Shown: one piece after another, positions 1 through 35,128 of the stretch | Position numbering within the stretch: the stretch's first letter is position 1 | How the letters are laid out: each line of letters begins with the position of its first letter | Origin: Anaerolineae bacterium | GTDB lineage: Bacteria; Chloroflexota; Anaerolineae; B4-G1; SLSP01 | NCBI GenBank assembly: GCA_034433375.1 | Contig: DAOUAQ010000116.1 | Location: forward strand, 16,442 to 80,441 | DNA length: 64,000 nt | Reading direction: 5' to 3' | Notes under the pieces: generated by a model | The model's database searches: none | What the model saw: only the letters and a program-made list of their open reading frames with translations | Told to the model about the DNA's origin: nothing | Translations under genes and position numbers: made by a program

Positions 1-837
1 ATCGTTGATAGAAGCGCCCGAGTTGTCCGTGAAGATGATGCGGATAGCAGTCTGTTGGGCAAGTCGGAACTGCCTTATAGCCGCTCTGCTATCACTTTGC
101 CGCTTCGTTCGCGCGGACAGATTCTCGGCGTCATCGAAGCGCACAGCTATCAACTCGATACTTTTGATGCGGAGAGTGTCATTGTTTTACAGACAATTGC
201 CGACCAGGTATCGGTAGCCGTTGATGGTTTACGCCTGTACGCCGAACGCCAGGAAGCAATGGAGAGTCTACAGCGCACCTACGGCGAAGCCACCCGCGCC
301 GCGTGGACTGCGCTATTGTTGGGCCGCGCCGCCGGAGCAGAAGGGTATCAGGTGGAGACCAAAGGTATGACCGCGTTGCCGCCCGCGCCGCCGGCTGCGT
401 GGCGCGCCGATGCCAGGGCGGCCTGGTCACAAGGGCGCGCCGTCGTAGATATGGAGGAGACCGGTGCAGCAGTTTTGGCGTTGCCGATTCGCTTGCGCGC
501 GGAGGTCATCGGTGTGGTTGATGTGAGCAAGCGCAAAGATGCCGGTGATTGGACGCCGGATGAGGTTTCCCAGCTAGAAGAACTCGTCGAGCAGTTGGGG
601 TTGACCCTGGAGAGTTCCCGGTTCTACCAGGAATCGCAACACGCCGCCGCGCGCGAACAACTCTTGCGTGAAATCTCGGAGCGCATTCGGGTTGCTGTTG
701 ACGTGGATTCGGTGATGCGCATTGCCGCCAAGGAAGTCGGGGACGTGCTGCAACGTCCTGTCTTCGTCTATATCGCGGATGAATCCGAAGGTTCAATGCC
801 TCCGGATCAGGTGCTGGGACCGGAAGCATGGTTATGA
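1..837 (+). CDS. 5'-truncated C-terminal part of a multi-GAF sensor protein; frame is open to the window edge
   Basis: Frame 1 is open from nt 1. GAF motifs 'LPYSRSAITLPLRSRGQILGVIEAHS' and 'VLQTIADQVSVAVDGLRLY' are present. It ends with the family tail 'AAREQLLREISERIRVAVDVDSVMRIAAKEVGDVL'. Confidence 0.7.
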   Translation: MVDRSARVVREDDADSSLLGKSELPYSRSAITLPLRSRGQILGVIEAHSYQLDTFDAESVIVLQTIADQVSVAVDGLRLYAERQEAMESLQRTYGEATRAAWTALLLGRAAGAEGYQVETKGMTALPPAPPAAWRADARAAWSQGRAVVDMEETGAAVLALPIRLRAEVIGVVDVSKRKDAGDWTPDEVSQLEELVEQLGLTLESSRFYQESQHAAAREQLLREISERIRVAVDVDSVMRIAAKEVGDVLQRPVFVYIADESEGSMPPDQVLGPEAWL

Positions 838-3704
838 AGGAAGATACAACGATGAGCGAAAACAACGAAATGGCCCGCTTGCTTGGCGCCGGGCAGCAGA
901 AAACCCGTCCCACGCTTGGTTTGCTCACGTATGGGCTTGTTGATACGATCAGTGAAGCGATGTGGCGCGGAGCGGAAGAGGCTGCGCGCGCGCATGACGT
1001 CAACCTGGTCTGCTTCTCCGGCGGCACACTGCGCGATTTTACCGGCGCTACGGTCTCCGCCAATGTGCTGTATGACTTTGTCAGCGCCGAACGTGTGGAT
1101 GGGCTGGTCATCTGGGTGGGGCTGCTGCACCATGTTGATCCCGAAACGGCCAGGGCTTTCTATCAACGCTATGCGCCTATTCCGCTGGTGAGCGTCGGAC
1201 TGCAACTCGAAGGCATCCCCACCGTGACGGTGGACAATTACGCGGGGATGTACAGTGCTGTAGAGCATCTGGTGGGGGGACACGGTTACTCTCGGATTGC
1301 CTTTATTCGCGGCCCCGAAGGCCATGAAGAGGCCGAGGAGCGTTATCTCGCTTATCGGGATGTTCTGGCAGCGCATGGCATTGCCTTTGACCCTGAACTG
1401 GTCACGCCGGGAAACAATCAGCGGTCAGGCGGGGTGAATGCGGTCAATCTATTGTTTGATGAACGGCGTTTGCGTCCGCAAGATGATGTCGAAGCGATTG
1501 TGGCCGCCAACGACAACATGGCTTTCGGCGCGGTGGAGGCGTTGCAGGCGCGGCAGGTTGCCGTCCCGCGCGAGGTCGCCGTGGTCGGCTTCGACGATTT
1601 TGCCGAGGGCCAATACGCGCTCCCCACGCTGACGACGGTTCCGTGGCCGGGATATGCCCAGGGGCGTCAGGCTGTCGAACTGTTAGTGGCGCTCCTGAGC
1701 CACGCCGACGTCCCCGCGTTGACGCGCGTTCCCACAACCGTGGTCATCCGCGAGTCGTGTGGCTGCCTGATCCCGGAGATGGTGCGGGCAGCGGAAGCGC
1801 CTGAACTGCGGCTTGCCGAACCGCGCGCGGCTGAGACTTTCGTCTCGGAGCGCGGTGCGCTGCTGGCCGAGATGACGCAGACCCTGGCGGCGCTTAAGGT
1901 TGACGACGCGCAGTTGGCCGGGCTGGTAGACGCTTTTATGGGCGAGATGGCCGTTTCTCCATCCAGGGGCTTTTTGCCGGCGCTGGAAGCGTTGTTGTGG
2001 CAGACTGTGATCGCGGGCGGCAATGTCAATGCCTGGCACGGCGTCGTATCTACTATGCGCCGCCATATTCTTCCTTATGTGCTGGACAACGGCGCGCGGT
2101 CTCGCGCGGAGAATCTCTGGCAGCAGGCCCGGACTATGATCAGCCATGAAGCGCAACGGGCGCAAGCGCGTCTGGGGTGGCAGGCAGAGAACCAGGCGAT
2201 GGCGCTGCGCTATTTTGCGCAAACATTGATCTCTGCCTCTGAATTGGATGATTTCGCCACCATGGTGCCGCAACAGATTCCATCCCTGGGAATCCCTGGC
2301 TGTTCCATTGCGCTGTTTGAAGACCCCGCAAAACCTGTCAACGCGCATTTGTTGGTGACCCGCGATGGAACGCGACCCCAGGCAGCATCCATTTTCCCCA
2401 CACGGTTGTTACTGCCGGACTCTGTGTGGAATCAGGAAAGCCGTTTCAGCTGTGTGCTCGAGGCGTTGTATATTCGGGAGGCGCAACTGGGGTACGTCCT
2501 TTTTGAAGCAGGGCCGCAGAATGGCAGCATTTACGTCACCCTGCGTGACCAAATTAGCAACGCCTTGCGCGGATTGCTGCTGGTGGAAGAGACCCGCCGC
2601 ACACAACTGGCGCTCCAAAAATCCTATGCCGAAGTGGAGCAACAAGTGGCGACGCGCACGGCTGAATTGCAGCGTGAAATCACCAGCCGCGAGAGCTTGT
2701 ATGAGCGCCGCGCCCTCCAGGTACAGACGAGCACGTTGATCTCCCAGGAAATCGCCGCCGCGCCGGCGTTGGATGAGTTATATCGCCGGGTGGTAACATT
2801 GGTCAAAGAACGCTTTGATTACTATCACGCGCAAATCTTCCGCTACGACCCGCAGTGGCACACCGTCCGCCTGGTCACCGGCTATGGTGAAGTGGGGCAG
2901 AAGATGCTTGAAGCCGGACATTCCATTGATGTGGGCATAGGTGTGGTGGGAACGGCGGCGGAGACCGGAGCAGCCGTCCTGGCAACCGATGTGACGCAGG
3001 ATAAGGAGTGGCGTCCTAATCCCAACTTGCCGGAGACCAAAGGCGAATTGGCGGTGCCCATCAAGTTGCGCGATCAGGTGTTTGGTATCCTGGATGTGCA
3101 GAGCAACCGCGCCAGGGCGCTCACCCTGGATGACCAACTGTTGTTGGAACAACTGTGCGGTCAAATCGCCATCGCTATTGAAAGCACACGCTTGCGCGAG
3201 GAGATGGAAGATCGTCTACAAATGTTGAACATGCTGCAAGCAGCTATGGCCCGCGAGGGGTGGGAGGTGCTGCGAGCCCAGCACCGCGGTCTCAAGGGCT
3301 ATGCGTATGATCAGGGTGTGGTGCAACCTTTGACTCAGGTTCCCTCCGGGGGATATACCGTTCCGGTTGCCGTGCAGCAGGATCAGGTCATCGGGCGCTT
3401 GGGCGTTCAAGAAGACCCGGCGCGGCCCCTCTCGTCAGAAGAACGCGCGCTCCTGGCATCCATATCAGAGCAGGTCGCGTCGTCCCTGGACAGAGCGCGC
3501 TTGTTCGAGGACACCCGCCGGAGCGCCGCGCGCGACCAGCTCATCGGTGAACTGAGCGCGCAGATGCGGGCTTCACTCGATGTTGAGCAAGTGCTGCAAA
3601 CTGCCGTGCGCGAAATGGTCAGCGCGTTGAACTTTGCCAGGGTGGAGGTGCGCCTGGGAACCGTGGAGGCCGAGGCGACTGCGGCGGAGGAGGTCGGCGC
3701 ATGA
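828..3704 (+). CDS. Cytoplasmic LacI/GalR-type PBP type-1 ligand-binding core (no HTH) fused to GAF domains and the family C-terminal tail
   Basis: 958-aa ORF. The N-terminus 'RPTLGLLTYGLVDTISEAMWRGAEEAARAHDVNLVCFSGG...VDNYAGMYSAVEHLVGGHGYSRIAFIRGPEGHEEAEERYLAYRDVL...VVGFDD' matches a LacI-family sugar-binding core. There is no signal peptide, TM segment or HTH. A GAF domain follows ('LVKERFDYYHAQIFRYD...NPNLPETKGELAVPIKLRDQVFGILDVQS'). The stop overlaps the next start (ATGA). Confidence 0.65.
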   Translation: MVMKEDTTMSENNEMARLLGAGQQKTRPTLGLLTYGLVDTISEAMWRGAEEAARAHDVNLVCFSGGTLRDFTGATVSANVLYDFVSAERVDGLVIWVGLLHHVDPETARAFYQRYAPIPLVSVGLQLEGIPTVTVDNYAGMYSAVEHLVGGHGYSRIAFIRGPEGHEEAEERYLAYRDVLAAHGIAFDPELVTPGNNQRSGGVNAVNLLFDERRLRPQDDVEAIVAANDNMAFGAVEALQARQVAVPREVAVVGFDDFAEGQYALPTLTTVPWPGYAQGRQAVELLVALLSHADVPALTRVPTTVVIRESCGCLIPEMVRAAEAPELRLAEPRAAETFVSERGALLAEMTQTLAALKVDDAQLAGLVDAFMGEMAVSPSRGFLPALEALLWQTVIAGGNVNAWHGVVSTMRRHILPYVLDNGARSRAENLWQQARTMISHEAQRAQARLGWQAENQAMALRYFAQTLISASELDDFATMVPQQIPSLGIPGCSIALFEDPAKPVNAHLLVTRDGTRPQAASIFPTRLLLPDSVWNQESRFSCVLEALYIREAQLGYVLFEAGPQNGSIYVTLRDQISNALRGLLLVEETRRTQLALQKSYAEVEQQVATRTAELQREITSRESLYERRALQVQTSTLISQEIAAAPALDELYRRVVTLVKERFDYYHAQIFRYDPQWHTVRLVTGYGEVGQKMLEAGHSIDVGIGVVGTAAETGAAVLATDVTQDKEWRPNPNLPETKGELAVPIKLRDQVFGILDVQSNRARALTLDDQLLLEQLCGQIAIAIESTRLREEMEDRLQMLNMLQAAMAREGWEVLRAQHRGLKGYAYDQGVVQPLTQVPSGGYTVPVAVQQDQVIGRLGVQEDPARPLSSEERALLASISEQVASSLDRARLFEDTRRSAARDQLIGELSAQMRASLDVEQVLQTAVREMVSALNFARVEVRLGTVEAEATAAEEVGA

Positions 3705-6655
3705 ACGCTCTGTTGACGAACGAGACTCTGCAAGGGCTGGCGTGGTTTGCCGGGTTGCTGGAGCTGGTCTTGGCTTTATATGTGCTGCTGCTTAACACCC
3801 GACACACGGCCAACCGTCACGTCAGCTTCCTGCTGTTCATCTTTGCCGTCAACAGCCTGGCCCTGGGCGCGTTGTTTGGCGCTACGCGTGTGGCGCAAGC
3901 TGTCCTGTCAACCCTGTTCTTGGCGGCGACTTCCGACCCGGCTAAAGTTGGCCTGCTCTTGACGGCCGTGATTCTGCTCAGCCCGCAATGGGTGCAGGGG
4001 CGCTGGCGCTGGCTAGGATGGCTATTGTATGGACTCGTCTTTTTACCGGTGGTTTTGACGGCTATTGATGCCGTCGGGCACACTGGCTTGTGGTACAGTG
4101 GCTTTGATGCAGCGAGTTATACCGGCGGCTACATCGCCGGTGGTTCTTACGAAGCAGGGCGGGTGGCGCACATCGTGCGGCCATTCTACGTGTATTTTCT
4201 CTCGTTATTGCCGTTTATACCGCCGCTGTGGGTCATTGCGCATCGGCAGACGCACCGCACGCTGCGCCAGTTAGCCTGGATGCTGTTGATTACACAGGTG
4301 ATCACCGTTGCTGTGCAGTTTGGGCTGCGTTCTTTCATCGGTTCGGGGGCAACGACCATTGTCACTTCAACCGCTTTTGCCTTGGGTTACGCCTACACCG
4401 CATTCCAGCAAATGCTTTCCGAACGCCGCGCCCAGCGCGGGCGCTTGCGGCCCCGTTTGACTGCGCTGACGTTGGTGATCGCCATTCCCATCCTGATCGC
4501 GCTCGTCGCCTTTATGCTCCTTCGCTCCTCCACGGTCATTGAAACTCAGACGGTCGAGACGTTGAGCGCGACCAACCGTCTGCTGGCGACCAGTACGCGA
4601 CAGTGGCTTGATTTCAACGTCAAAGCGTTGCGTCAATTGGTGATGCAGCCAGATATTCAGGGGATGGACGCTGTTCTACAAAAGCCGATCCTGGCAGCGA
4701 TGGATGCGGTTCACGAAAACATCTATCTGGTCAGCACGACCGATCTCAACGGTATGAATGTGGCGCGCAGTGATGACGCCGCGCTGACCGATTATAGCGA
4801 CCGTGCGTGGTTTCAGCAAGTACGGGACGGCGCTTCACTTGCGTATCAGGTCACGATCGGGCGTACAAGTGGAAAACCGGCGTTGATTGTCTCGCTGCCG
4901 ATTCTTGATCCGGCGGGGAATCTCGTCGGCGTCGGTATGTTTGCCTCCAACCTGGATCAACTGTCCAGCGAGATCGCCGTCACCCGTTTTGGGCAAACGG
5001 GCGTGACGTATGTGGTGGACGCGAAAGATCGCATTATCGCCCATCCCGACCCCGCGTTCTCTGCTTCTATCGTTGATATTCACGATTCCCCTGTGGCGCA
5101 GAAGTTGCGTGAGGGAGAGGCAAAGCAGTTCCGCTACATGGATGCTGCGGGCCGGCAGTGGCAGGCTTATGTGGATGTGTTGGACAACGGGTGGGGTATC
5201 ATCGCGCAGCAGGAATATGCGGAGTTGCGCAATCCACTTGAGCGCCTTGCCCGCATCGGCGTGCTCGCGTCGGTTCTGGGGGGGCTGTTGCTTGGCGGAT
5301 TGACCTTCTTGACGATGCGCCAGGCGCTTGCGCCCATTGATACCCTGACCGCAACCGTGACCGCGATTACGGAGGGCGATTTAACCCGCACTGCCCCGGT
5401 GGTGAGCGAGGACGAGTTCGGCGTTCTGGCGCGCACCTTCAACAGTATGACTGCGCAACTGCGTGAGTCCATTGACACGTTGGAGCAGCGTGTGGCTTCC
5501 CGCACCCTCGATCTGCAACGCCGTTCCGCCTATCTGGCAGCTTCGGCGGAGGTCAGCCGCGCGGCGGTCTCGATCTTGGACCCCGACGTGTTGATCCGCC
5601 AGGTGGTGGATTTGATCCGCGAGCGTTTTGATCTTTACTACGTCGGCCTGTTCCTGGTGGATGAAACGACGACCTGGGCCGAGTTGCGTTCCGGCACAGG
5701 CACGGCGGGGCAGGCCATGTTGGCGCGCCAGCACCGCATCCGCATCGGTGAAGGCATGATCGGGTGGAGCATCGCCAACGCCGAAGCGCGCGTCGCGTCG
5801 CGCGCCGAGGTTGACGAAGTGCGCCTCGTCAACCCGGAACTGCCGGATACGCGCTCTGAGGCAGCTTTGCCGTTGCGCTCGCGCGGGCAAGTGCTCGGCG
5901 CATTGTCCGTGCAGAGCACGCACCCAGACGCCTTCGATCCGGAGAGTGTGAGCGTGTTGCAGACGATGGTGGATCAGGTGGCGGTGGCCATTGACAACGC
6001 GCGCTTGCTGGCGCAGGCGCAGACCGCGCTGGAAGCAGAACGCCGCGCCTATGGCCTCGCTTCGCGCCAGGACTGGAGCCGCCTGGCCCGCGTCCGCGCC
6101 GAGTCGGGTTACATCGGTGTGCGCCAGGCCGTGGCTACAACCTCGGACGCCACGGAAGTGGCGCTGCTCGTGGCGCAGGGCGAATGGAGTCCCGAGATGC
6201 GCGTCGCGCAACGAACCCGGCAGAGCGTCACGGGGCAGCACGAGGGGATGCCGACGCTCGCCGTTCCTATTCTTGTGCGCGAGCAAGTGGTGGGCGTGTT
6301 GAATTTCAGCAAAAGTGAGCAGGCCACCGGTCTTACGCCAGGCGCGACCTGGACGCAGGAAGAAGTCACCCTCCTTGAGGCGCTCGCCGGGCAATTGGGG
6401 CAGGCGTTGGACGCCGCCCGGCTGTACCGCCAGACGCAGCTTCGCGCAGCCAGGGAAGGCGCTATCCGCGAAATCACGGATCAGATGCAGCGCGCGACGG
6501 ACATAACGGCGCTGATGCGCATCACAGCGCAAGCCTTGAATCAGACGCTCGGCGGTTCGCGCGTCTATGTGCGCCTGGGCGCTGATACGGGCGCCGGCAC
6601 GCGGACTGTCGCCAGTGAGCAGACGGATGGAGGAAACCATGGCGATGCGGAGTAA
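3701..6655 (+). CDS. Multi-TM membrane sensor: Cache-like periplasmic domain, HAMP, GAF domains and the family tail
   Basis: 984 aa. The N-terminal ~280 aa are hydrophobic. A Cache-like segment follows ('DRAWFQQVRDG...LIVSLPILDPAGNLVGVGMF...TYVVDAKDRIIAHPDP'), then HAMP ('TEGDLTRTAPVVSEDEFGVLARTFNSMTAQLRES'), then GAF ('LIRERFDLYYVGLFLVD...NPELPDTRSEAALPLRSRGQVLGALSVQS'). Confidence 0.7.
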   Translation: MNALLTNETLQGLAWFAGLLELVLALYVLLLNTRHTANRHVSFLLFIFAVNSLALGALFGATRVAQAVLSTLFLAATSDPAKVGLLLTAVILLSPQWVQGRWRWLGWLLYGLVFLPVVLTAIDAVGHTGLWYSGFDAASYTGGYIAGGSYEAGRVAHIVRPFYVYFLSLLPFIPPLWVIAHRQTHRTLRQLAWMLLITQVITVAVQFGLRSFIGSGATTIVTSTAFALGYAYTAFQQMLSERRAQRGRLRPRLTALTLVIAIPILIALVAFMLLRSSTVIETQTVETLSATNRLLATSTRQWLDFNVKALRQLVMQPDIQGMDAVLQKPILAAMDAVHENIYLVSTTDLNGMNVARSDDAALTDYSDRAWFQQVRDGASLAYQVTIGRTSGKPALIVSLPILDPAGNLVGVGMFASNLDQLSSEIAVTRFGQTGVTYVVDAKDRIIAHPDPAFSASIVDIHDSPVAQKLREGEAKQFRYMDAAGRQWQAYVDVLDNGWGIIAQQEYAELRNPLERLARIGVLASVLGGLLLGGLTFLTMRQALAPIDTLTATVTAITEGDLTRTAPVVSEDEFGVLARTFNSMTAQLRESIDTLEQRVASRTLDLQRRSAYLAASAEVSRAAVSILDPDVLIRQVVDLIRERFDLYYVGLFLVDETTTWAELRSGTGTAGQAMLARQHRIRIGEGMIGWSIANAEARVASRAEVDEVRLVNPELPDTRSEAALPLRSRGQVLGALSVQSTHPDAFDPESVSVLQTMVDQVAVAIDNARLLAQAQTALEAERRAYGLASRQDWSRLARVRAESGYIGVRQAVATTSDATEVALLVAQGEWSPEMRVAQRTRQSVTGQHEGMPTLAVPILVREQVVGVLNFSKSEQATGLTPGATWTQEEVTLLEALAGQLGQALDAARLYRQTQLRAAREGAIREITDQMQRATDITALMRITAQALNQTLGGSRVYVRLGADTGAGTRTVASEQTDGGNHGDAE

Positions 6656-9600
6656 GCGCGTGAAGAAGGCGCCGGCCGATACGGGAACATCTCGCCAGCA
6701 ACGGCCCACACTCGGCCTTTTCATTGACAGTTTGACGATGGGCTACCAGATTGCGCTGTTCCAGGGGGTTGACGCCCTGGCGCGCGAACGGGATGCCAAC
6801 CTACTGGTCTTTGTAGGAGGGGCGCTACCTCCCGCTGGATCACCCGCCCTTCTTGACAATGTGCTCTATGATCTACTGGGCGAAGACATCGTGGATGGGG
6901 TAATCCTATCCTCCGGGTCTGTAGGAACGGGAATCAGCCTCGGAGAAATGCAGGCGTTTTGCGAGCGTTTCCGTCCCCTGCCGCAGGCCAGCATCGCGTT
7001 GCCCTTGGCCGGCATACCGAGCGTGTTGATGGATAACTACGCGGGTATGCGCGCGGTGGTACAGCATCTCGTCGAAGTCCACGGCTACCGGCGCATTGCT
7101 TTCCTCCACAAACAAGAAGGCCACCCCGAAAACGACGCGCGTTACAACGCCTACGTTGATGTGTTAGCCGAACACGGCATCGCGGTTGACCCTGATCTGG
7201 TCATCCCTGGCGTTCACTACAACACCCCTGAAACCGGCTTGCGCTTGTTGTTTGATGAACGCCGGCTGCGACCGCGCATTGATGTCGAGGCGCTGGTAGC
7301 GGTTGATGATCGCGTGGGACTCCAGATATTGGACATCCTGCAAGCGCGCGGCGTCCGTGTGCCCGACGACGTGGCGTTGGTGGGATTTGATGATGTTGAG
7401 GATAGCCGGTACGTGACACCTTCTCTGACCACGGCGCGGCAACCGTTGCAGGCTCAGGGCCGCGGTGCGGCGGAATTGGTACTGGCGCAAATTCAGGGCG
7501 AGGCGGTGGCGCCACAGACAAGATTACAGGCCGATTTGGTCGTTCGCCGCTCCTGTGGCTGTTTGGATACGATTGTCCGGCAGGCGCACGTGGAACCGGT
7601 AGTGCGCGCGTCCGCGGATCCGGCTCTGCCCCTCGACGGAGCGTTGACGGCGCGCCGGGAAGACATCCTTGCCGATATAGTGGGAACCGTCGCCACCCGC
7701 GATGTGACTGACCATGCGCGCGCGCGCATCACCGAGCAAGTCGGGTGGCTTGTGGATGCTTTTGTCACCACGTTGAAGGCCATAGAAGCAGCCGTACCCT
7801 CGGAAATTTTCTTGTGGACACTGGATGAAATTCTACGGCAGACCGTGCTTGAGCAGCGCGACGTGACAGCGTGGCAAGATGGCCTCTCAGTGTTGCGCCG
7901 ACACGCCCTATCCTGCGCCTGCGCCGTCACGGTGCTTACCCAGGTTGAAAACCTGTTCCAGCAGGCGCGCGTGATGATCGGTGGGGCAGCGCAACAAGCG
8001 CAGGCCTCCCAACGGCTACAGGCCGGGCGACGTGACCAAACACTGCGCGAAGTGGGTCAGACTTTGATCACCGCAGCCAAAGTCGAAGAGTTGGCGGATG
8101 TGATCATCTCTGAGCTATCCAGATTGGATATTCCTAGCAGCTACCTTTCTCTCTACGTTGATCAACGCGCGCCCGCGACCGGCTCGAAGCTGCTGTTGGC
8201 TTATGACCGCGTCCGGGGCTTTGAGCAAAAATCAGCGATACATTTTCCCTCGCGCCAGCTCGTGCCAGAAGGATTCTTCCCAACAGACCGACGTTACAGC
8301 ATGGTGGTCATCCCCCTGTACTTCCTGAACGCGCAACTTGGACGCGCGCTCTTTGAAATTGGCCCCCGCGAGGGTTCGATCTACGATGCGCTGCGCGGAC
8401 AGATCAGCAGCGCCTTGCAGAATGTGCTACTCACCGAGCGGATGGCTGCCCGCGCCCTCCAACTGCAGACCGCCGCTGAAGTTGCGCGCGCCGCGAGTGG
8501 TATGCTTGATCCCGCTGCATTGGTGCAACAAGTGGTGACCCTGGTGCGCGAGCGGTTTCACCTCTATTATGCCGGCCTGTTCCTGGTGGAAGTGGATGCC
8601 GACAACCCCGAGCTGCAGTGGGCTGTATTGCGTGCGGGCACAGGCGAGGCTGGCGCGCAAATGGTGGCGCAAGGCCACCGGCTGTTGGTCGGCGGGACTT
8701 CGATGATCGGCTGGTGTGTCGCGCACCGTGAAGCGCGGGTGGCGTTGGACGTGGGCCTGGAGAAAGTCCGTCAACCCCATCCACTGCTGCCGGACACGCG
8801 CTCGGAACTGGCGTTGCCTTTGATCAGCCGTGGGCAGGTCATCGGCGCTTTAACGATTCAGAGTACTGTGCAAGCTGCCTTTAGCCAGGAAGACATCATT
8901 GTGCTGCAAACCCTGGCCGATCAGCTTGCCAATGCCATCGGGAACGCGCGACTGTATGAGGCGTTGGAATTCGAGCAGTACTTGATGGACACGCTGATGG
9001 ACAACACCCCCGATCATATCTACTTCAAAGATCGGGAGAGCCGGTTTATTCGCGCCAGTCGTTCGCAAACCGCACGCTTTGGTTTAGCCACTCCTCAGGA
9101 GATCGTTGGTAAGTCCGACTTCGATTTCTTCTCGGAGGCCCACGCCCGTCCTGCGTATGACGATGAGCAGCGCATTATCCGCACAGGCGAAGCGATGCCA
9201 GAAATCATGGAGCGGGAGACATGGCCCGATCAACCTGACACATGGGTTACTACGGTTAAGATGCCCATGCGCGACCGCGATGGCGCCATCATCGGCACTT
9301 TCGGCATTTCGCGGGATATCACGGAACGCAGACGCGCGGAGATACAGTTGGCTGCGGAACGCAACCTGCTGCGCACCCTCATTGACAACCTGCCGGACTA
9401 CATCTACATCAAGGATCGCCAGAGCCGCTTCCTGATTAACAACAGCGCGCACCTGCACGTGTTGGGCGCGAAGACGCAGGAAGAGGTGGCCGGAAAAACC
9501 GATTTCGACATCTTCCCCCCCGAACTGGCGATCCAGTACTACACCGACGAGCAGAAACTGATGGAGGCCGGTGAAACGTTGATTGACCGTGAAGAGCCGG

Positions 9601-10886
9601 TAGTGGATCAAACCAGCGGCGAAAGCCAGTGGGCATCCAGCACGAAAGTGCCACTACGGGATGAGAATGGTCAAATCACCGGTTTTGTGGGGCTGACGCG
9701 CGATATTACCGAACGCAAACGCACGGAAGCTGTGCTGCGTCGGCGCAACATGCAACTGCAAACCGTAGCCGAAGTGGCGCGCACAGCCGGCGGCGTTATG
9801 GACCTGGAGACGTTGATGCAGCAGTCCGTAGATTTGCTGCGCGCGCAACTCGACCTGTATTACGTCGGCCTCTTCCTCGTGGATGTGACGGTGGCGCCGG
9901 CTGAATTTGCCAGCGCCCGCCGCCAGCAATGGGCTGTGTTGCGCGCCGGGACCGGCGCGGCTGGCGCGCAGATGGTCGCGCGCGGCCATCGTCTTGAGGT
10001 CGGCGGAACCTCGATGATTGGGCAATGTGTGGCGACGGGGCAAGCGCGTATCGCGTTGGACGTAGGGGCTGAGGCGGTGCGCTTCGAGAATCCGTTGTTG
10101 CCTGATACGCGCTCGGAGCTGGCGCTGCCGCTCATCAGCCGCGGTGGAACAATCGGCGCGCTGAGCATCCAAAGCACAGAAGCATCCGCCTTTAGCGCGG
10201 AAGATGTCACCGTGCTGCAAGCTCTGGCCGACCAGTTAGCCAACGCCATAACGAACATCCGCTTGTTCGAACAAACACAAAGCGCCTTGCGCGATCTGGA
10301 AATGATTCAACACCAGTATTTGCGCGAAGCCTGGCGCGGGTATCAGGCCGCCGGGTTGCCCACCGATTATGAAGTGACGCGCCCAGGTGTGACACCTTTG
10401 CGCGACATAGGCGGCGCGCAGGCCGTGTTGCCAGAAATCCAGGCGGCGCTGGCCCGGCAGGGCGCGGTCGTGCTGTCGGAGCGTGAGGCGCACATCAACG
10501 ACTATGCCGCCCTCGTCGCTCCGATCACACAGCGCGGCGAGAGCATCGGCGCCTTGGGTATTCACGACGAAGATAGCGGGCGCGAGTGGACCGAAGACGA
10601 AATCGCCCTGCTTGAGACAGTCGCCGAGCGCATGGGCATCGTCGCCGAAACGCTGCGGTTGCTCGAAGAGACGCAGCGCACCGCCGGGCGCGAATACCTG
10701 ACCCGCCAGATCACCGACCAGATTCGCGGAGCGGTCACGGTGAATGAGGCCATCCAGCGCGCAATCCGGCAGTTGGGCGATGCGTTGGGCGCCGAGATGA
10801 TCGCGCACATTGATGTCGGACAGGGTGTGGCTTCTGGTGCGCCCGAGAAGGGGGAAAATGATGCAAACTCAGTCGTCGCCAGTTGA
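6627..10886 (+). CDS. LacI-type PBP core (no HTH), GAF, tandem PAS, GAF(s) and the family tail; large cytoplasmic sensor
   Basis: The ORF runs 6567..10886. Likely starts are ATG 6627 or 6639, where 'GGAGGAAACC' lies upstream of 6639. The N-terminus 'RPTLGLFIDSLTMGYQIALFQGVDALARERDANLLVFVGG...MDNYAGMRAVVQHLVEVHGYRRIAFLHKQEGHPENDARYNAYVDVL...LVGFDD' is paralogous to 828..3704. Two PAS modules are present ('LMDTLMDNTPDHIYFKDRESRFIRAS...GISRDITERRRAE' and 'LLRTLIDNLPDYIYIKDRQSRFLINN...GLTRDITERKRTE'). Two ~70% identical GAF copies flank them. Confidence 0.7.
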   Translation: MEETMAMRSKRVKKAPADTGTSRQQRPTLGLFIDSLTMGYQIALFQGVDALARERDANLLVFVGGALPPAGSPALLDNVLYDLLGEDIVDGVILSSGSVGTGISLGEMQAFCERFRPLPQASIALPLAGIPSVLMDNYAGMRAVVQHLVEVHGYRRIAFLHKQEGHPENDARYNAYVDVLAEHGIAVDPDLVIPGVHYNTPETGLRLLFDERRLRPRIDVEALVAVDDRVGLQILDILQARGVRVPDDVALVGFDDVEDSRYVTPSLTTARQPLQAQGRGAAELVLAQIQGEAVAPQTRLQADLVVRRSCGCLDTIVRQAHVEPVVRASADPALPLDGALTARREDILADIVGTVATRDVTDHARARITEQVGWLVDAFVTTLKAIEAAVPSEIFLWTLDEILRQTVLEQRDVTAWQDGLSVLRRHALSCACAVTVLTQVENLFQQARVMIGGAAQQAQASQRLQAGRRDQTLREVGQTLITAAKVEELADVIISELSRLDIPSSYLSLYVDQRAPATGSKLLLAYDRVRGFEQKSAIHFPSRQLVPEGFFPTDRRYSMVVIPLYFLNAQLGRALFEIGPREGSIYDALRGQISSALQNVLLTERMAARALQLQTAAEVARAASGMLDPAALVQQVVTLVRERFHLYYAGLFLVEVDADNPELQWAVLRAGTGEAGAQMVAQGHRLLVGGTSMIGWCVAHREARVALDVGLEKVRQPHPLLPDTRSELALPLISRGQVIGALTIQSTVQAAFSQEDIIVLQTLADQLANAIGNARLYEALEFEQYLMDTLMDNTPDHIYFKDRESRFIRASRSQTARFGLATPQEIVGKSDFDFFSEAHARPAYDDEQRIIRTGEAMPEIMERETWPDQPDTWVTTVKMPMRDRDGAIIGTFGISRDITERRRAEIQLAAERNLLRTLIDNLPDYIYIKDRQSRFLINNSAHLHVLGAKTQEEVAGKTDFDIFPPELAIQYYTDEQKLMEAGETLIDREEPVVDQTSGESQWASSTKVPLRDENGQITGFVGLTRDITERKRTEAVLRRRNMQLQTVAEVARTAGGVMDLETLMQQSVDLLRAQLDLYYVGLFLVDVTVAPAEFASARRQQWAVLRAGTGAAGAQMVARGHRLEVGGTSMIGQCVATGQARIALDVGAEAVRFENPLLPDTRSELALPLISRGGTIGALSIQSTEASAFSAEDVTVLQALADQLANAITNIRLFEQTQSALRDLEMIQHQYLREAWRGYQAAGLPTDYEVTRPGVTPLRDIGGAQAVLPEIQAALARQGAVVLSEREAHINDYAALVAPITQRGESIGALGIHDEDSGREWTEDEIALLETVAERMGIVAETLRLLEETQRTAGREYLTRQITDQIRGAVTVNEAIQRAIRQLGDALGAEMIAHIDVGQGVASGAPEKGENDANSVVAS

Positions 10887-12243
10887 GATGGATCAGGAAC
10901 AAGCCCGGCGCGTCCAGATGACTCGGGCAGTCATACAAGTTTCGACGGCCGCTGCGGCTGTGATCCTGATCGTTTTTGCGAATTTGTGGATCGCCGGATC
11001 CCAATTTGCGGGTCGGTACGTCGCAGTGGTGGCTCTGGGATTCCTCATGCTCGGTGGTATTAGTTTATGGCTGATTCGCCGCCGCCACTTGAATCCAGCT
11101 ATTACAGTTTACATATTTGCATTGATTGCCGGTCTGACGATGGCTATCTATCTCCTGGGTGGTGTGACCGGACCGGTAACAGTTGGTTTTGTGATGGCGG
11201 CGGTAATTGTTGGATTGATTGGCGGCGCCCGATCGTTGAGTCATGCCGCCATCACCATGGGGGTCATTTATTTGACGATGGCGATTCTGGAGGCTACCCA
11301 CGTGCTGCATCCGCCCCGGATACCCGATACGTCCGTCTGGTTGATCGAGATTGTTTTCTTTTTAGCGATATTTGTGGTGACAGCGTTGGTGGCGAGAACA
11401 TTTGTCAACCAGAGTGGGCGCGCTATGGCTGAGGAGCAGCAGCGCAGCCTTGAACTGGCTCAGGCCAGTCGCCAGGCCGAGGAATTGGCGCTGACCGAGC
11501 GCGAACTGCGTGAACGAGAGGCGCACTCGTCGGCGCACCTCCGCGAGACTGTCGCCGGCTATGCTGACTATCTGTCGCGTGTGGCTGCCGGAGATTTTGC
11601 GGCGCGCGTGGATGTGGGCATGTTGGAAGAGGACGTCGAAGGCGACCGTGAACTGCACGCGCTGGGTGAATATCTTAACTCGACAGTGGATGCGCTGGTT
11701 GCTGCACTGACCCAGGCCCAGGAAGCGCAGCGGCGCTATACAGAACAGGCATGGAAAACTTTCATAGAGTCGGGGCGTGTGCAGCCAGGATTTGCCTACC
11801 GGAAAAATCAAATCACACCGGACGCCGAGTGGCTACCGCAGATGACCCGGGCTGTGGACAGCGGAGCGCCCGTAGTGCAGGATGCGGGTGCGGGCGTGCC
11901 GTTGGTCGTCAACCGGCAGATCGTGGGCGCTATCGGCGGCCAGCACCCCGATGGACGGCCCTGGACCACAGAAGAGTTGGCTTTGATCGAAGATGTGACC
12001 GGGCAGCTCGCGCAGACGATTGAAAGCCTGCGGTTGTTCGACGACGTGCAGCGTCGCGCCGCCCAAGAGCAGGTGATCGGTGACGTGACGGCGCGGATGC
12101 GCGAGTCACTGGATATGGAGACCGTGCTCAGAACCGCGGTGGATGAGATGCGCCAGGCGCTAGGCCTGGAAGGCGTCATCGTGCAACTGGCAAGGCCAGA
12201 AACTGTGCGTGACGAGCTGGACACGCAGCAACCGCCGGTATAG
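10858..12243 (+). CDS. Membrane protein (4-5 TM), HAMP-like/coiled-coil region, short GAF-like domain and the family tail (type B)
   Basis: The ORF runs 10810..12243. The probable start is ATG 10858 ('MMQTQSSPVEM') with 'GAAGGGGGAA' upstream. It overlaps the preceding gene by 29 nt. Internal motif 'LGEYLNSTVDALVAALTQAQEAQRRY' is present. The tail is 'QRRAAQEQVIGDVTARMRESLDMETVLRTAVDEMRQALGLEGVIVQL'. It is paralogous to 31880..33283. Confidence 0.65.
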   Translation: MMQTQSSPVEMDQEQARRVQMTRAVIQVSTAAAAVILIVFANLWIAGSQFAGRYVAVVALGFLMLGGISLWLIRRRHLNPAITVYIFALIAGLTMAIYLLGGVTGPVTVGFVMAAVIVGLIGGARSLSHAAITMGVIYLTMAILEATHVLHPPRIPDTSVWLIEIVFFLAIFVVTALVARTFVNQSGRAMAEEQQRSLELAQASRQAEELALTERELREREAHSSAHLRETVAGYADYLSRVAAGDFAARVDVGMLEEDVEGDRELHALGEYLNSTVDALVAALTQAQEAQRRYTEQAWKTFIESGRVQPGFAYRKNQITPDAEWLPQMTRAVDSGAPVVQDAGAGVPLVVNRQIVGAIGGQHPDGRPWTTEELALIEDVTGQLAQTIESLRLFDDVQRRAAQEQVIGDVTARMRESLDMETVLRTAVDEMRQALGLEGVIVQLARPETVRDELDTQQPPV

Positions 12244-12261
12244 GTGAGGAGGAACGTGAGT

Positions 12262-14025
12262 ATGTGGATGCGCATCAGACAATTCCTTGCGCCGCCGGTG
12301 TTTGAAGGCGATGAGGATAAGACTCAGACTGCTGGCCTCGTCAACACGATCTTGCTGGCCGTCATCGTGTTGATCAGTGTGGCCTCACTCGTCGTTGTGC
12401 TCGTGCTGCGTATTTACGCGCTGATGGGCACACTTTACCTGAGCATGATGCTGCCTATGCTGGTGGCGCTGTGGCTATTGCGGCGCGGTCACGTAAGTGG
12501 CGCTGCTGCCATCATCGTCGGCGCCTTGTGGCTGGTGCTGGTCGTGTCGGGGGCGTTTATTGGTGGGATCATCAACGCCGGTTATACGACGGTTACACTG
12601 GTGATTATCATTGCTGCGTTGCTGCTAGGTGGGCGCGGCGGCATCATTGTCACCGTCGTCAGCATTGTGGCGATCACTATCGTCTACATCACAGAGATGA
12701 CCGGTATCCTGCCTTCTCCGGCGCGTCCAGACGATCCGACGAGTTTCTTCGTCAACCATATCCTTAATTATGGGATGTCCGGGGCCTTGCTGTATCTGGC
12801 GATGCGCAATCTGCGAATGGCGCTTCAGCGCGCCCGACGGCTGGCTGGCGAGTCAGAACTACAACGAGAGCAGTTACAATTGCTGGTGCAACAGCGTACC
12901 CATGACTTTGAGCGTAACGCCAATTACCTGCGGGCAACAACGGCTGTCACGCAAGAGTCCGTGGCGGCCATGGGTGATCCCCAAGAATTATATACTCGTG
13001 TCGTCAACATCATTCAAAATCAATTTGGCTATTACCATGTTGGTCTCTATTTGCTCGACGACAATGCCGAATGGGTTGAATTGCGCGCTGCCTCTGGCAT
13101 CGGTGCGGAACTGGCTACGCAAGGTTTCCGTCTACAGGCTGGTATTGAGGGTATGATTGGCGATGTGGCGCGCCGTGGAACCTACCGTTTAGCCGAAGAC
13201 GTTGGCGAAGATGCGCTGTATCTGTCGCAAGAACTCCTGCGCGACACGCGTTCCGAGTTGGTCCTGCCCTTGCAAACCCGCAATCAAATCATCGGCGTGT
13301 TGGATATACAAAGCGCCGCCGCGCGCGCATTTACTGCGCAGGACGTGCAGACCTTTCAGGCTCTGGCGGATCAAGTGGCGATGGCAATCAGTAACGCACG
13401 TCTGGTGGAACAGGTTCGCCAGGCGGCTGAAGTGGAGCGCCGGATCTATAGCGCGCAAACCGGTGAGGCGTGGCAAAATCTGCTGCGCGCCAGCGAACGA
13501 CTGGGCTTTTACAGCACCGAACAGGCAACCGCCCCAGCCGCCAATCTCTGGCAACCGGAGATGAAGACGGCTTTGCAGACCGGTGGAACGGTGCAGGCTC
13601 CCCAAGATACCCGGCGGTTAGCTGTGCCGGTCAAAGTGCGCGATGAAGTGATCGGGGTCATTGATTTTGCCAAGCCGGATGCCGGCAGCACGTGGACGGC
13701 GGAGGAAATCACCCTGGCGGAATCGCTCACCGAGCAGCTAGGAATAGCCCTGGACAGCGCCCGCTTGTATCAGGACTCGCAACGTCGCGCCACACGTGAG
13801 CGGATGATTGCCTCCGTCGGCGCGCGGGTGCGGGAAACGCTGGAATTGGAGACGATGTTGCAGGTGGCGGTGCAGGAGATTCGTCAGGCGCTGAATCTCG
13901 ACGATATGGTAGTGCGCTTGGCAACACCGGACATGCTGGATGAGCCATCGTCTACCGATAAAGCACCTGACTTCACTGAAAAAACCACCAAGTCGCCAAG
14001 AACGCCAAGGTTTTTTAATGGTTAG
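12262..14025 (+). CDS. Membrane-anchored GAF sensor (type A): N-terminal 'MWxxIRxFLxPPVFEGDED' motif, ~6 TM, two GAF domains and the family tail
   Basis: The ORF runs 12244..14025. The start at ATG 12262 ('MWMRIRQFLAPPVFEGDEDKTQTAGL') is preceded by 'GAGGAGG' at 12246-12252. GAF motifs 'FGYYHVGLYLLDDNAEWVELRAASG' and 'LLRDTRSELVLPLQTRNQIIGVLDIQS' are present. The tail is 'QRRATRERMIASVGARVRETLELETMLQVAVQEIRQALNLDDMVVRL'. Confidence 0.7.
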   Translation: MWMRIRQFLAPPVFEGDEDKTQTAGLVNTILLAVIVLISVASLVVVLVLRIYALMGTLYLSMMLPMLVALWLLRRGHVSGAAAIIVGALWLVLVVSGAFIGGIINAGYTTVTLVIIIAALLLGGRGGIIVTVVSIVAITIVYITEMTGILPSPARPDDPTSFFVNHILNYGMSGALLYLAMRNLRMALQRARRLAGESELQREQLQLLVQQRTHDFERNANYLRATTAVTQESVAAMGDPQELYTRVVNIIQNQFGYYHVGLYLLDDNAEWVELRAASGIGAELATQGFRLQAGIEGMIGDVARRGTYRLAEDVGEDALYLSQELLRDTRSELVLPLQTRNQIIGVLDIQSAAARAFTAQDVQTFQALADQVAMAISNARLVEQVRQAAEVERRIYSAQTGEAWQNLLRASERLGFYSTEQATAPAANLWQPEMKTALQTGGTVQAPQDTRRLAVPVKVRDEVIGVIDFAKPDAGSTWTAEEITLAESLTEQLGIALDSARLYQDSQRRATRERMIASVGARVRETLELETMLQVAVQEIRQALNLDDMVVRLATPDMLDEPSSTDKAPDFTEKTTKSPRTPRFFNG

Positions 14026-14086
14026 ATGAAGATAATTTGTGAAAACGGGTGAATCTCTTGAAATTATTCATCAATTATTCGATTTT

Positions 14087-14110
14087 CTTGGCGAACTTGG
14101 CGTCTTGGCG
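14087..14110. repeat. Three tandem CTTGGCG heptamers (spacings 9 and 8 bp) in the largest intergenic gap of the GAF array
   Basis: CTTGGCG occurs at 14087-14093, 14096-14102 and 14104-14110. A direct repeat 'GAAAGTGAAACGACGCA' / 'GAAGTGAAACGGCGCA' follows at 14146-14178. Together they sit 25-120 nt upstream of ATG 14204. Confidence 0.5.
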
Positions 14111-14203
14111 GTCAAGAAGGACTTTTTGCAGTAGACTCAGCACCTGAAAGTGAAACGACGCAGAAGTGAAACGGCGCATAGCAGGGATCGTGGAGGCTTC
14201 GGA

Positions 14204-16462
14204 ATGAAGAAAACTGGCTTAACGACGCTCGGCGGATTTGTAAGCATCGGTATGTTATTACTAGGGATGCTGACGTCCGCGTGGAAGATGCCGGTGTCTG
14301 CCCAGTCGCCACAGCGGCGAGTTTTGTACATTAACTCCTATCACCGTGGCTACAAATTTTCGGACGACATCACGCGCGGTATCGAAGCGTTGCTCAAAGC
14401 GCCGGGCATGAACGTTGACCTTCAAGTAGAGTATATGGATACCAAACGCATCGCCACCGAGGCATATCTCGAGCAACTCTATCAACTTTACAAGGTCAAG
14501 TTCCATGATAAAAAGTTTGATCTCGTCATCTCATCCGACGACGCCGCATTGAACTTTCTCTTTAAGCATGGCGACGACCTGTTTCCGCACACACCGGTGG
14601 TCTTCTGCGGCGCGAACTTCTTTGATGTGACCCGGCTGGCCGGCCGCGAACTGTACACCGGCGTGAGCGAGTTGGCAGACATCAAAGGGACGTTGGGCCT
14701 GGCGCTCCAACTGCACCCGGCGACACAGCGCATCATCGTCATCAACGATACCTCGGTGACCGGCCAGCGGATCCATGACCGGCTGATGCAGATCATCCCG
14801 GACTATCCCAACGTCGAGTTCACCTTACTTGAAGATGTTTCGATGGCCGAAATACGCGAGAAGGTCAGCACCTTGCCGCCCGATAGTTTAGTCTATTTCA
14901 CCATCTTTTTCACCGATAGTGTTGGCGGATATTATGAGTACGACGTGGGGATGCAGCAAGTGGCCGGCGCCAGCGTCGTGCCGGTTTACGGGACGTGGGA
15001 TTTCAGCCTGGGCTTTGGCATCGTCGGCGGGAAACTCACCAGCGGCTATACCGAGGGCGAACGCGTCGCGCAACTCGCCGTGCGCATCCTCAACGGCGAG
15101 CGCCCCCAAGACATTCCGGTGGTACAAGAAATCGTCAGCCGTTATATGTTTGACTATGAGCAACTGCGGCGTTGGAATATCCCTGAAGCGGCGTTACCCG
15201 AAGATAGCTACATTCTCAACAAACCTTTCTCTTTTTACGAAACCTATCGTGAACTGGTGTGGAGTGTGGGCTTCAGCCTCGTCGTGCTCGGTGTCGCCGT
15301 AGGCATCCTGTCGGTTAGCGTTGTGCGACGGCGGCGAACGGAAACCGTCCTGCGGGACCGCAACCAGGAGCTGCAGGAGATTCGCACCTCACTGGAACAG
15401 CGCGTCGAAGAACGCACGGCAGCCTATGTCCAGCGGGCAACCCTGTTGCAGGCGGCGACGGAAGTATCGCAGACAACCACCGAGATCGCCGAACTCTCCA
15501 TCTTGCTACCGCGTGTGGTGGAACTGGTGCGTGAGCGGTTTAACCTGTATTACGCCGGGCTGTTCCTGGTGGACGAAGAAGGGCGTTGGGCCACATTGCG
15601 CGCCGGCACCGGGGCAGCCGGCCAGCAGATGTTAGCGCAGAACTGGCGTTTGGAAGTGGGCGGGCGCTCCATGATTGGGCGCTGCGTGGCGACGGGACGC
15701 GCCGATATCCAGTTGGATGTGGGTGAAGCGGCGGTGCGTTTTGACAACCCCTTCTTGCCGCAGACGCGCTCCGAGATGGCGCTGCCTTTGCGCGCGCGTG
15801 ACCAGGTCATCGGCGCGATGACCATCCAGAGTGATCGCCCGGCCGCTTTTAGCGATGACGATATCCGCACCATGCAGACTATGGCGGACCAAATTGCCAT
15901 CGCCATCAGCAACGCGCGGCTCTTTGAGCAAGTCCAAGAACGGTTCGCAGCTGAGCGGCGGATGTATGGCGAACGCACCGGCGCGGCGTGGCGCACACTG
16001 GCGCAGACAGAATCCGGTCTGGGATACCTGAGTGATCGCCGCCGGATTGTCCCGGCGGGTGATCTGTGGCGTCCGGAGATGCGCGCGGCTTTACGTTCTG
16101 GACAGATGAGCACTGGCGAGCAGGGCAACACCGTGGCGATGCCGTTGACCGTGCGCGATCAGGTGGTCGGCGTGATTGACGGAACCAAGCCGAATGGCGC
16201 GGTGTGGACCGAGGAAGAAATCAGTTTGTTCACGGCCATGATTGACCAATTGAACGTCGCTCTGGAAGGCGCGCAACTCTACCGCGAATCCCAACGCGCG
16301 GCAGTCCGTGAACAACTATTCAGCCAGGTCAGTGGGCGCATCCGGCAGGAACTTGATCTCGAAGCCGTACTCAAAACCACGGTTGATCAAATCCAAGAAG
16401 TTCTCGGACTTGATCGAGCCACGATTCGCCTGGTGCATGACGTGGATCAAGATAAGGGATAA
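14204..16462 (+). CDS. COG2984/ABC_sub_bind-type periplasmic binding domain, TM, GAF x2 and the family tail
   Basis: The ORF runs 14150..16462. The likely start is ATG 14204 ('MKKTGLTTLGGFVSIGMLLLG', signal-like) with 'GTGGAGG' upstream. Periplasmic domain 'RRVLYINSYHRGYKFSDDITRGIEALL...FDLVISSDDAALNFLFKHGDDLFPHTPVVFCGAN' resembles ABC-transporter substrate-binding-like sensor domains. A TM segment follows ('VWSVGFSLVVLGVAVGILSV'). GAF motifs are 'LVRERFNLYYAGLFLVDEEG' and 'NPFLPQTRSEMALPLRARDQVIGAMTIQS'. Confidence 0.65.
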   Translation: MKKTGLTTLGGFVSIGMLLLGMLTSAWKMPVSAQSPQRRVLYINSYHRGYKFSDDITRGIEALLKAPGMNVDLQVEYMDTKRIATEAYLEQLYQLYKVKFHDKKFDLVISSDDAALNFLFKHGDDLFPHTPVVFCGANFFDVTRLAGRELYTGVSELADIKGTLGLALQLHPATQRIIVINDTSVTGQRIHDRLMQIIPDYPNVEFTLLEDVSMAEIREKVSTLPPDSLVYFTIFFTDSVGGYYEYDVGMQQVAGASVVPVYGTWDFSLGFGIVGGKLTSGYTEGERVAQLAVRILNGERPQDIPVVQEIVSRYMFDYEQLRRWNIPEAALPEDSYILNKPFSFYETYRELVWSVGFSLVVLGVAVGILSVSVVRRRRTETVLRDRNQELQEIRTSLEQRVEERTAAYVQRATLLQAATEVSQTTTEIAELSILLPRVVELVRERFNLYYAGLFLVDEEGRWATLRAGTGAAGQQMLAQNWRLEVGGRSMIGRCVATGRADIQLDVGEAAVRFDNPFLPQTRSEMALPLRARDQVIGAMTIQSDRPAAFSDDDIRTMQTMADQIAIAISNARLFEQVQERFAAERRMYGERTGAAWRTLAQTESGLGYLSDRRRIVPAGDLWRPEMRAALRSGQMSTGEQGNTVAMPLTVRDQVVGVIDGTKPNGAVWTEEEISLFTAMIDQLNVALEGAQLYRESQRAAVREQLFSQVSGRIRQELDLEAVLKTTVDQIQEVLGLDRATIRLVHDVDQDKG

Positions 16463-16478
16463 CAGGTGGGAGAGCGTT

Positions 16479-18218: not shown

Positions 18219-18220
18219 GT

Positions 18221-21626: not shown

Positions 21627-21704
21627 CCAATACCACAGGCAGCTTCGCGCCGCATGTGAGCCGTCAGCGGGCGAGGTGGCTGTACTATGTAAGGTGGGGA
21701 AGGA

Positions 21705-24419: not shown

Positions 24420-24428
24420 AGGGCCAAT

Positions 24429-28743: not shown

Positions 28744-28779
28744 TGAGAAGTTTGTGGAGATACAGCAAGGAGACCTCCG

Positions 28780-29139: not shown

Positions 29140-29147
29140 GGGGGACT

Positions 29148-29504: not shown

Positions 29505-29544
29505 CGGGCGTGCTTTTTGCGGGTGCAGAAAAAAAGGACTCTCT

Positions 29545-35123: not shown

Positions 35124-35128
35124 ACGAA

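Follow-up and report, generated by a model that had tools for sequence, protein, structure and literature searches.

The 64,000 nucleotides of Anaerolineae bacterium contig DAOUAQ010000116.1 analysed here (the window) carry two paralogous genes whose products, proteins 1 and 2, join a periplasmic binding protein (PBP) core of the LacI/GalR type to GAF signalling domains. The genes lie within an array of consecutive GAF genes that share a conserved C-terminal module (CTM), and a giant hybrid histidine kinase closes the array (Table 1). Both open reading frames (ORFs), and every peptide that a first-pass annotation of this DNA had quoted from them, are present in the translation, and the paralogy proposed there is confirmed by the N-terminal modules, which are 41% identical over 607 aa (E 4e-125). 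Residues are numbered from nt 828 in protein 1 and from nt 6567 in protein 2; nt 6627, where the first-pass annotation began protein 2, is another of its in-frame ATGs. Whichever start is chosen, each protein is too short N-terminally to hold a helix-turn-helix (HTH) domain, and the DNA upstream of both genes is taken up by the preceding genes.

The N-terminus of both proteins has the LacI/GalR-type fold that had been proposed for it. Pfam recognizes Peripla_BP_3 (aa 146-311, E 1.4e-31), Peripla_BP_1 (aa 29-302, E 1.4e-22) and Peripla_BP_4 (aa 34-291, E 4.3e-15) in protein 1, and Peripla_BP_3 (aa 165-330, E 4.8e-30) in protein 2. The closest solved structure is an ancestral LacI core, 9nt3 (E 3.4e-35, aa 28-311 against residues 5-269 of 280), and the next matches in the PDB (AscG, CcpA, RbsR, PurR and LacI) are LacI-family cores as well. 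When E. coli LacI, RbsR, PurR and RbsB are aligned to them, the two proteins start at about LacI residue 60, which is where the core starts: residues 1-60 of LacI (HTH and hinge) have no counterpart in either protein in this alignment, and at most 28 (protein 1) or 45 (protein 2) residues stand ahead of the core. These N-terminal peptides match no Pfam family even at E<=10, and no HTH family was found in either protein as a whole (Pfam, E<=0.01). A cryptic HTH was considered and rejected, as none is detectable in the N-terminal peptides, the middle domains or the CTM (Pfam, E<=10). Transmembrane segments and signal peptides are likewise absent from both proteins, in which the highest mean Kyte-Doolittle hydropathy over 19 residues is 1.42, compared with 2.4-3.4 in membrane-bound neighbours. 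The claims that HTH and signal peptide are missing and that the proteins are cytoplasmic thus hold, and, since neither an unrelated fold nor a cryptic HTH turned up, so does the view of the domain as a recruited sensor module.

Carrying the domain does not make these proteins repressors. LacI-family models of NCBIfam score only 70-104 bits against cut-offs of 340-557 (the best, PRK09526, reaches 103.5 bits against 340), and all equivalog models are far below their cut-offs; because of this, and with the HTH tested and found absent, proteins 1 and 2 share the LacI-type domain without being members of the repressor family. Nor do they belong with the periplasmic ABC solute-binding (RbsB-like) proteins, as they have no hydrophobic N-terminus; their match to RbsB is weak (5.6e-8).

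Between the PBP core and the first GAF lie about 300 strongly conserved residues (aa ~315-645 of protein 1) that have no match in NCBIfam or, to E<=10, in Pfam. An AlphaFold2 (AF2) model built with a 50-sequence alignment as input (mean pLDDT 91.4) resolves this region, in order, into four short helices, a 48-residue helix, a five-strand alpha/beta domain, and a 78-residue helix that continues as far as the canonical GAF. In Foldseek searches of the PDB the alpha/beta part shows the GAF fold: the top match is the GAF of PtsP (3ci6, E 1.2e-4, target-normalised TM-score 0.58), followed by GAFs of KdpD, MCP and phytochromes. Where the PBP core meets the helical region stands the motif R-x-SCGC, whose alignment columns are near-invariant (kept in 114 of 119 close matches and in 103 of 132 family representatives), and which could form an inter-subunit metal or redox site. 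Further downstream, at least one canonical GAF is present in both proteins, and Pfam finds three GAF stretches and two PAS domains in protein 2. The description of the core as fused to GAF was therefore right as to the canonical GAFs but skipped some 300 conserved residues, namely the helical region, the cryptic GAF and the signalling helix. From N- to C-terminus, the module order is an HTH-less LacI/GalR-type PBP (Venus-flytrap) core, R-x-SCGC, a helical region, a divergent GAF, and a signalling helix.

Table 1. Features of the two LacI-core genes and of the array that contains them, with positions in the window
Feature	Position	Strand	Description and evidence
Protein 1 gene	828..3704	+	958 aa from ATG 828; gene callers start at ATG 852, 950 aa (P0001)
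LacI/GalR-type type-I PBP core, protein 1	909..1763	+	aa 28-312, both subdomains, no HTH or hinge; Pfam, PDB 9nt3, alignment
R-x-S-C-G-C motif	1749..1766 (protein 1, aa R308-C313); 7545..7562 (protein 2)	+	Junction of PBP core and helical region
Helical region of middle domain, protein 1	1833..2231	+	aa ~336-468; four short helices and one 48-residue helix; AF2; no Pfam match
Cryptic (Pfam-invisible) GAF-fold domain, protein 1	2244..2507	+	aa ~473-560; AF2, Foldseek
Long signalling helix, protein 1	2526..2759	+	aa ~567-644; AF2 (model helix 253-330)
Canonical GAF, protein 1	2769..3182	+	aa 648-785; Pfam GAF_2, E 2.7e-22
CTM, protein 1	3222..3686	+	aa 799-953; helix, 4-strand half-GAF, 46-residue helix, helix, tail; 136 bits against CTM hidden Markov model (HMM)
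Protein 2 gene	6639..10886	+	1415 aa from ATG 6639 (gene callers); longest ORF from 6567, 1439 aa
LacI/GalR-type PBP core, protein 2	6699..7562	+	R-x-SCGC motif at its end; Pfam, alignments, comparison with protein 1
Middle domain, protein 2	7563..8483	+	Same parts as in protein 1 (helical region, cryptic GAF, helix), from the alignment of the two; no Pfam match
GAF 8508-8939, PAS 9009-9326, PAS 9384-9722, GAF 9801-10250, protein 2	8508..10250	+	Pfam
CTM, protein 2	10293..10826	+	174 bits against CTM HMM
Array of 17 consecutive GAF genes	55..40698	+	In every gene a variable sensor, one or more GAFs and a CTM at the end; runs past the window's left edge
Two tandem SpoIIAA-like (STAS-fold) ORFs	28780..29139; 29124..29504	+	119 aa and 126 aa; Pfam PF11964
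Hybrid histidine kinase closing the array	40758..49454	+	2,898 aa, PAS-8xGAF-HisKA-HATPase-REC-REC; Pfam; kept in L084

The same combination recurs widely. A search with aa 1-641 of protein 1 returned 427 proteins at E<=1e-5, and because these cover 88-100% of the query, the PBP core and the middle domain evidently travel together: they are one conserved portable input module, defined by a PBP core, then R-x-SCGC, then a helical and GAF-fold domain of about 300 aa, as found in proteins 1 and 2. Taken by itself (aa 335-591), the middle domain matches 1,910, 1,034 and 186 of 1.84 billion representatives of clusters at 50% identity at E<=1e-3, 1e-10 and 1e-30, respectively, and most of the 150 matches listed start at about residue 300-390, behind an N-terminus of PBP size (about 300 aa or more). 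Among the best 120 of the 427 proteins, as read from their Pfam strings, the outputs behind the module are GAF-only (~53), HisKA/HATPase (~25) and STAS (~22), and more rarely MCPsignal (6), SpoIIE (PP2C; 6), GGDEF (1) and sigma54-AAA+/HTH_8 (1). A scan of one genome per species located the module at 137 loci, mostly in Chloroflexota (Anaerolineae, Caldilineaceae, Thermoflexales, Promineifilaceae, Ardenticatenaceae and Aggregatilineales), with a few beyond that phylum (Moduliflexus, Polyangiaceae and Spirochaetia/Treponemataceae); at many loci it is part of hybrid kinases of about 1,200 aa with the order PBP-middle-HisKA-HATPase-REC-REC. The closest genome relatives are Anaerolineae metagenome-assembled genomes (MAGs), with 71-73% identity. 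The architecture had been called unusual; it is instead recurrent and modular, with the same module preceding varied outputs in hundreds of Chloroflexota proteins, and appears to be uncharacterised. Database names for its members are generic or misleading: NCBI calls them ‘substrate-binding domain-containing protein’, and the JGI name, ‘DNA-binding LacI/PurR family transcriptional regulator/...’, is misleading for the HTH-less members (P0008, P0027, P0041 and others). Some members are also named ‘sigma-B regulation protein RsbU’ by JGI despite having no SpoIIE domain, which amounts to systematic over-annotation.

We consider it probable that proteins 1 and 2 are soluble cytoplasmic sensors with a LacI-core input module of about 640 residues. 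The input would be a small cytoplasmic metabolite bound in the cleft between the two PBP subdomains, and the two paralogues would bind different ligands. The pocket was taken as the 24 columns that correspond to inducer contacts in LacI, mapped onto the family by sequence alignment only. Counterparts of LacI R197, N246/D247 and D274 persist (R172, N228/D229 and D256), and at the position of LacI D149 and RbsB D89 nearly all members of the family have Gly or Ala. Across 24 orthologues of protein 1 (51-100% identity) conservation in the pocket columns exceeds the average of the domain (0.88 versus 0.81), and 13 of these columns are invariant, including W96, E168, N197, W273 and G275; across the other 93 family members the pocket columns fall below the average (0.55 versus 0.65), and protein 2 departs from protein 1 at four pocket positions, 197 (Y), 228 (D), 273 (Q) and 275 (L). 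Conservation within orthologues together with diversification between subfamilies argues for real ligand binding, and the two tryptophans and the retained Arg/Asn/Asp triad would fit a carbohydrate-like ligand without proving one. A sugar or sugar-like ligand is plausible for the PBP core, the sugar suggested by the first-pass annotation being a guess. No sugar-utilisation operon adjoins the LacI-core genes in the window.

The pocket also bears on a rather improbable alternative, in which the PBP core has ceased to bind any small molecule and serves only for dimerisation or as a scaffold, the GAF and PAS domains being the real inputs. LacI-type cores are obligate dimers, the acid equivalent to LacI D149 has been lost family-wide, and no ligand can be named, all of which would suit such a role. 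A mere scaffold, however, would leave unexplained why the pocket columns behave as specific and diversifying ligand sites do, being above the domain average in orthologues and below it between subfamilies, and why the equivalents of R197, N246 and D274 are kept.

If the cores of proteins 1 and 2 do bind metabolites, closure of the cleft would be passed on from the C-terminal end of the core, opposite to LacI, where the DNA-binding head is N-terminal. From the CGC junction the signal would pass along the helices, then the cryptic GAF and finally the signalling helix, to reach the GAF of protein 1 or the GAF-PAS-PAS-GAF series of protein 2. The junction motif invites a different view of the input, which we judge about as improbable as the scaffold: the core may sense something other than a metabolite, either a protein partner (as CcpA does with HPr-Ser-P) or, by way of the C-G-C pair of two subunits, a redox state or metal. 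CcpA cores are among the PDB matches, and R-x-SCGC (114/119 and 103/132) is more conserved than most pocket positions. Yet the CGC, being at a domain junction, is outside the cleft, and its role may be structural alone; the annotated ORFs of the window included no HPr-like gene (small ORFs were read only in 28650..29650); and the conservation pattern of the pocket would be left to explain.

The C-terminal end of both proteins is formed by the CTM, of about 175 aa. An HMM made from 17 copies matches all 17 array genes over its full length (127-220 bits), and in all 17 the match ends within about 30 residues of the stop codon. AF2 models the CTM (pLDDT 85.7) as a long helix, a four-stranded sheet, a 46-residue helix, a further helix and an unpaired tail; by hhalign the sheet and helix correspond to the final hairpin and helix of a GAF (E 1.7e-14), and the first part of the CTM shows no similarity to GAF. 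In local hhalign comparisons the tail falls into register with helix 1 and strand 1 of GAF, weakly (E 0.0036, probability 9%). A ‘truncated GAF start’ in the tail was accordingly kept as a hint only. The half-GAF and the tail might together make up a circularly permuted or domain-swapped GAF; in the AF2 monomer, though, the tail strand has no pairing partner. An ANTAR or other RNA-binding output in the Arg-rich tail was rejected for want of Pfam support (E<=10). No STAS domain was found in protein 1, protein 2 or the CTM, and Pfam finds neither HisKA nor HATPase_c in the two proteins, which have no recognisable catalytic or DNA-binding output domain. Homologue searches seeded with the CTM and prefiltered by words found at least 5 proteins by sequence and at least 21 by profile, and stand-alone versions of about 215 aa exist that consist of a coiled coil and a CTM.

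For proteins that sense metabolites in this way, the CTM would, more speculatively, be the output, acting by protein contact with array members, the SpoIIAA-like proteins and/or the giant kinase, and the PBP proteins might thereby feed cytoplasmic metabolite information into a phosphorelay with many inputs. The alternative that they are transcription or RNA-binding regulators, with the CTM as a new nucleic-acid-binding domain, we hold to be highly improbable. The conserved Arg-rich helix (TQRRAARE) of the CTM, a module with no assigned function, and the JGI ‘DNA-binding LacI/PurR family’ naming could be read that way, but the name reflects the PBP core only, and neither an HTH, nor ANTAR, nor any other nucleic-acid-binding family is detected at E<=10. 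The sole fold resemblance of the CTM is to GAF junction regions, and 17 paralogues with the same ‘DNA-binding’ domain in one operon-like array would be odd. Each of these three alternatives, scaffold, non-metabolite sensor and nucleic-acid-binding regulator, fits the data less well than cytoplasmic metabolite sensing does.

Several observations nonetheless weigh against the reading of proteins 1 and 2 as metabolite sensors with an output through the CTM. The pocket is defined by an inducer-contact list that we take to be that of the LacI-IPTG structures, and it does not look like a textbook sugar site, because the D149/D89-equivalent acid has been replaced by Gly or Ala. The output role of the CTM is pure inference: Foldseek finds no significant relative of it in the PDB (best E 0.075, to GAF junction regions of PDE6, PDE2 and phytochromes), and it has no invariant His, Asp or Cys, its top conserved motif being TQRRAARE. 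Adjacency to a kinase is known in only two arrangements; L084, a metagenome contig that also carries the giant kinase, is a close relative and hence not independent. All relatives are predicted proteins, nearly all of them from MAGs or metagenomes, and no description of the module or of the arrays was found in the literature.

The array to which proteins 1 and 2 belong, with its common CTM, was missed by the first-pass annotation and may be the more important puzzle. Including the kinase it spans 55..49454 (about 49 kb), tightly packed on one strand; the gene cut by the left edge of the window encodes a dCache-HAMP-GAF protein, and a further gene lies ahead of it beyond the edge (locus L001). 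Its sensors comprise the two LacI-core modules, at least two dCache-HAMP sensors, an ABC_sub_bind-like sensor, MASE11, multi-transmembrane and PAS sensors, and a HAMP protein with five GAFs. The two SpoIIAA-like ORFs match PF11964 at E 1.2e-4 (23.2 bits, below the 25-bit cut-off) and 9.2e-6 (26.8 bits), and the only PDB match of a SpoIIAA-like ORF is weak (3bl4, E 0.032). This paralogous pair sits in the only large gap of the array and is easily missed at an ORF cut-off of 200 aa. No sigma70-like promoter was found in the gap (28.7-29.6 kb), and Rfam and tRNA scans of the window returned nothing.

Comparable arrays occur elsewhere. Four related MAGs (L002-L005) have syntenic arrays in which both LacI-core paralogues are kept as separate genes, and the contig L084 is syntenic at 88% nucleotide identity, giant kinase included. 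In more distant Anaerolineae/Thermoflexales MAGs there are arrays of 4-9 CTM genes (L011, L016, L023, L033, L064, L073, L074 and L076). Two loci, L056 and L072, have the gene order REC, GAF-histidine kinase, PBP-middle-GAF and then CTM genes; L020 starts with two REC genes, and L076 has no REC and carries a GAF gene after a histidine kinase that itself shows no GAF match. The kinase cores of these four loci are the nearest to that of the giant kinase (E 1e-64 to 1e-70, versus 1e-6 to 1e-54 for others). At two further loci (L085 5184..8651 and L087 6041..8639) stand-alone CTM proteins of about 215 aa adjoin STAS-like ORFs of 114-116 aa and DUF6272 proteins, for which no solved relative was found by sequence, and in L085 a GAF-SpoIIE phosphatase is also adjacent to the stand-alone CTM genes. 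These neighbours hint at a link between such arrays and partner-switching.

A more ambitious interpretation, and an unlikely one in our view, is that the 17 or more sensors, the two STAS-fold proteins and the kinase with its eight GAFs form one multi-input assembly, with the CTM as a new docking or oligomerisation domain through which about twenty sensors, the two cytoplasmic LacI-core proteins among them, would address a single phosphorelay. One possibility within it is that the CTM is a half-GAF to which a partner supplies the missing part in trans with its GAF-like tail. If true, this would be the equivalent, built on GAF domains, of the stressosome or chemoreceptor arrays.

Binding-protein folds occur at other places in the array as well. 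The member at 14150..16462 (+) has an ABC_sub_bind (PF04392) sensor behind an N-terminal hydrophobic segment, and binding-protein folds have thus been recruited into this array on either side of the membrane. A 362-aa gene without GAF lies within the array at 35129..36217 (+); it has a weak ABC_sub_bind match, the N-terminus of its product resembles a signal or lipoprotein sequence (…LIVLLSCVAAC…), and NMT1-type binding-protein genes stand at comparable places in the arrays of L085 and L087. The membrane HAMP-GAF sensor next to it may have this product as its partner binding protein. Past the end of the array, the genes at 49892..63163 are unrelated: they encode a PHP-domain protein (-), a PolX-type DNA polymerase, a ROK-family protein, a VanW/PG_binding_4 protein, a cellobiose/chitobiose-phosphorylase-type enzyme of GH94 (-) and an O-antigen-ligase-like protein.

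The module defines a large class of cytoplasmic receptors, so far unstudied. They are based on the LacI core, which among the allosteric ligand-binding folds of bacteria is the best understood, and send the signal out by the other end of the core towards kinase, phosphatase, chemoreceptor, c-di-GMP and sigma54 outputs. For annotation, the middle domain merits a family model of its own. Metabolite sensing is poorly known in Anaerolineae, which abound in sludge, sediments and digesters, and the module provides receptors on which it can be tested. For engineering, the LacI-type pocket, coupled in nature to a histidine kinase or a diguanylate cyclase, is a biosensor chassis ready for use.

Among published surveys, a census of c-di-GMP enzymes (PMC8846402) lists ‘Periplas_BP’ among putative sensory domains of unknown function and remarks that LacI-like PBP domains in signalling proteins ‘may bind diverse solutes, including sugars’. 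The remark stays at the level of a census and does not extend to the middle domain, the motif, the swapping of outputs or the arrays. The nearest relatives by sequence are LacI, PurR, RbsR, CcpA, GalR and CytR, whose PBP core is homologous over its whole length (E 1e-20 to 1e-35). The LacI/GalR repressors have an HTH and a hinge helix, whereas proteins 1 and 2 lack both and carry their downstream domains on the C-terminal end of the core; they also differ in having Gly or Ala in place of the D149 equivalent and in the added R-x-SCGC. E. coli XylR, of the AraC family, has an N-terminal cytoplasmic PBP/LacI-like sugar-binding core and a C-terminal AraC-type HTH output. The placement of core and output is the same in proteins 1 and 2, but a helical and GAF transmitter of about 300 aa is present here and a DNA-binding domain is not. 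AmiC of Pseudomonas aeruginosa, a stand-alone, LivJ-like, cytoplasmic amide sensor of the PBP type that acts on AmiR by protein contact, likewise has a soluble type-I PBP fold without a DNA-binding domain; the core in proteins 1 and 2 differs in being LacI-like and fused to GAF/PAS domains.

At the level of the array, there is a parallel with the RsbR paralogues of the Bacillus stressosome, in which varied N-terminal sensors are joined to one conserved non-enzymatic C-terminal domain. As an analogy only, the array has varied sensors with a common CTM, small STAS-fold proteins alongside, and relatives of the module that are fused to STAS or PP2C; unlike in RsbR, the CTM is not a STAS domain, and no RsbT-type kinase was identified. 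The array is accordingly not classed as a stressosome or partner-switching system: it holds only the two small SpoIIAA-like ORFs, and SpoIIE and DUF6272 were seen only in other arrays. PBP folds are also established as inputs of phosphorelays. The Bacteroides hybrid two-component system BT1754 has a periplasmic PBP-type sensor input, and in LuxP/LuxQ, TorT/TorS and ChvE/VirA the fold is an extracytoplasmic input (reviewed in PMC8050422). Compared with all of these systems, the module in proteins 1 and 2 is cytoplasmic and brings its own helical and GAF transmitter.

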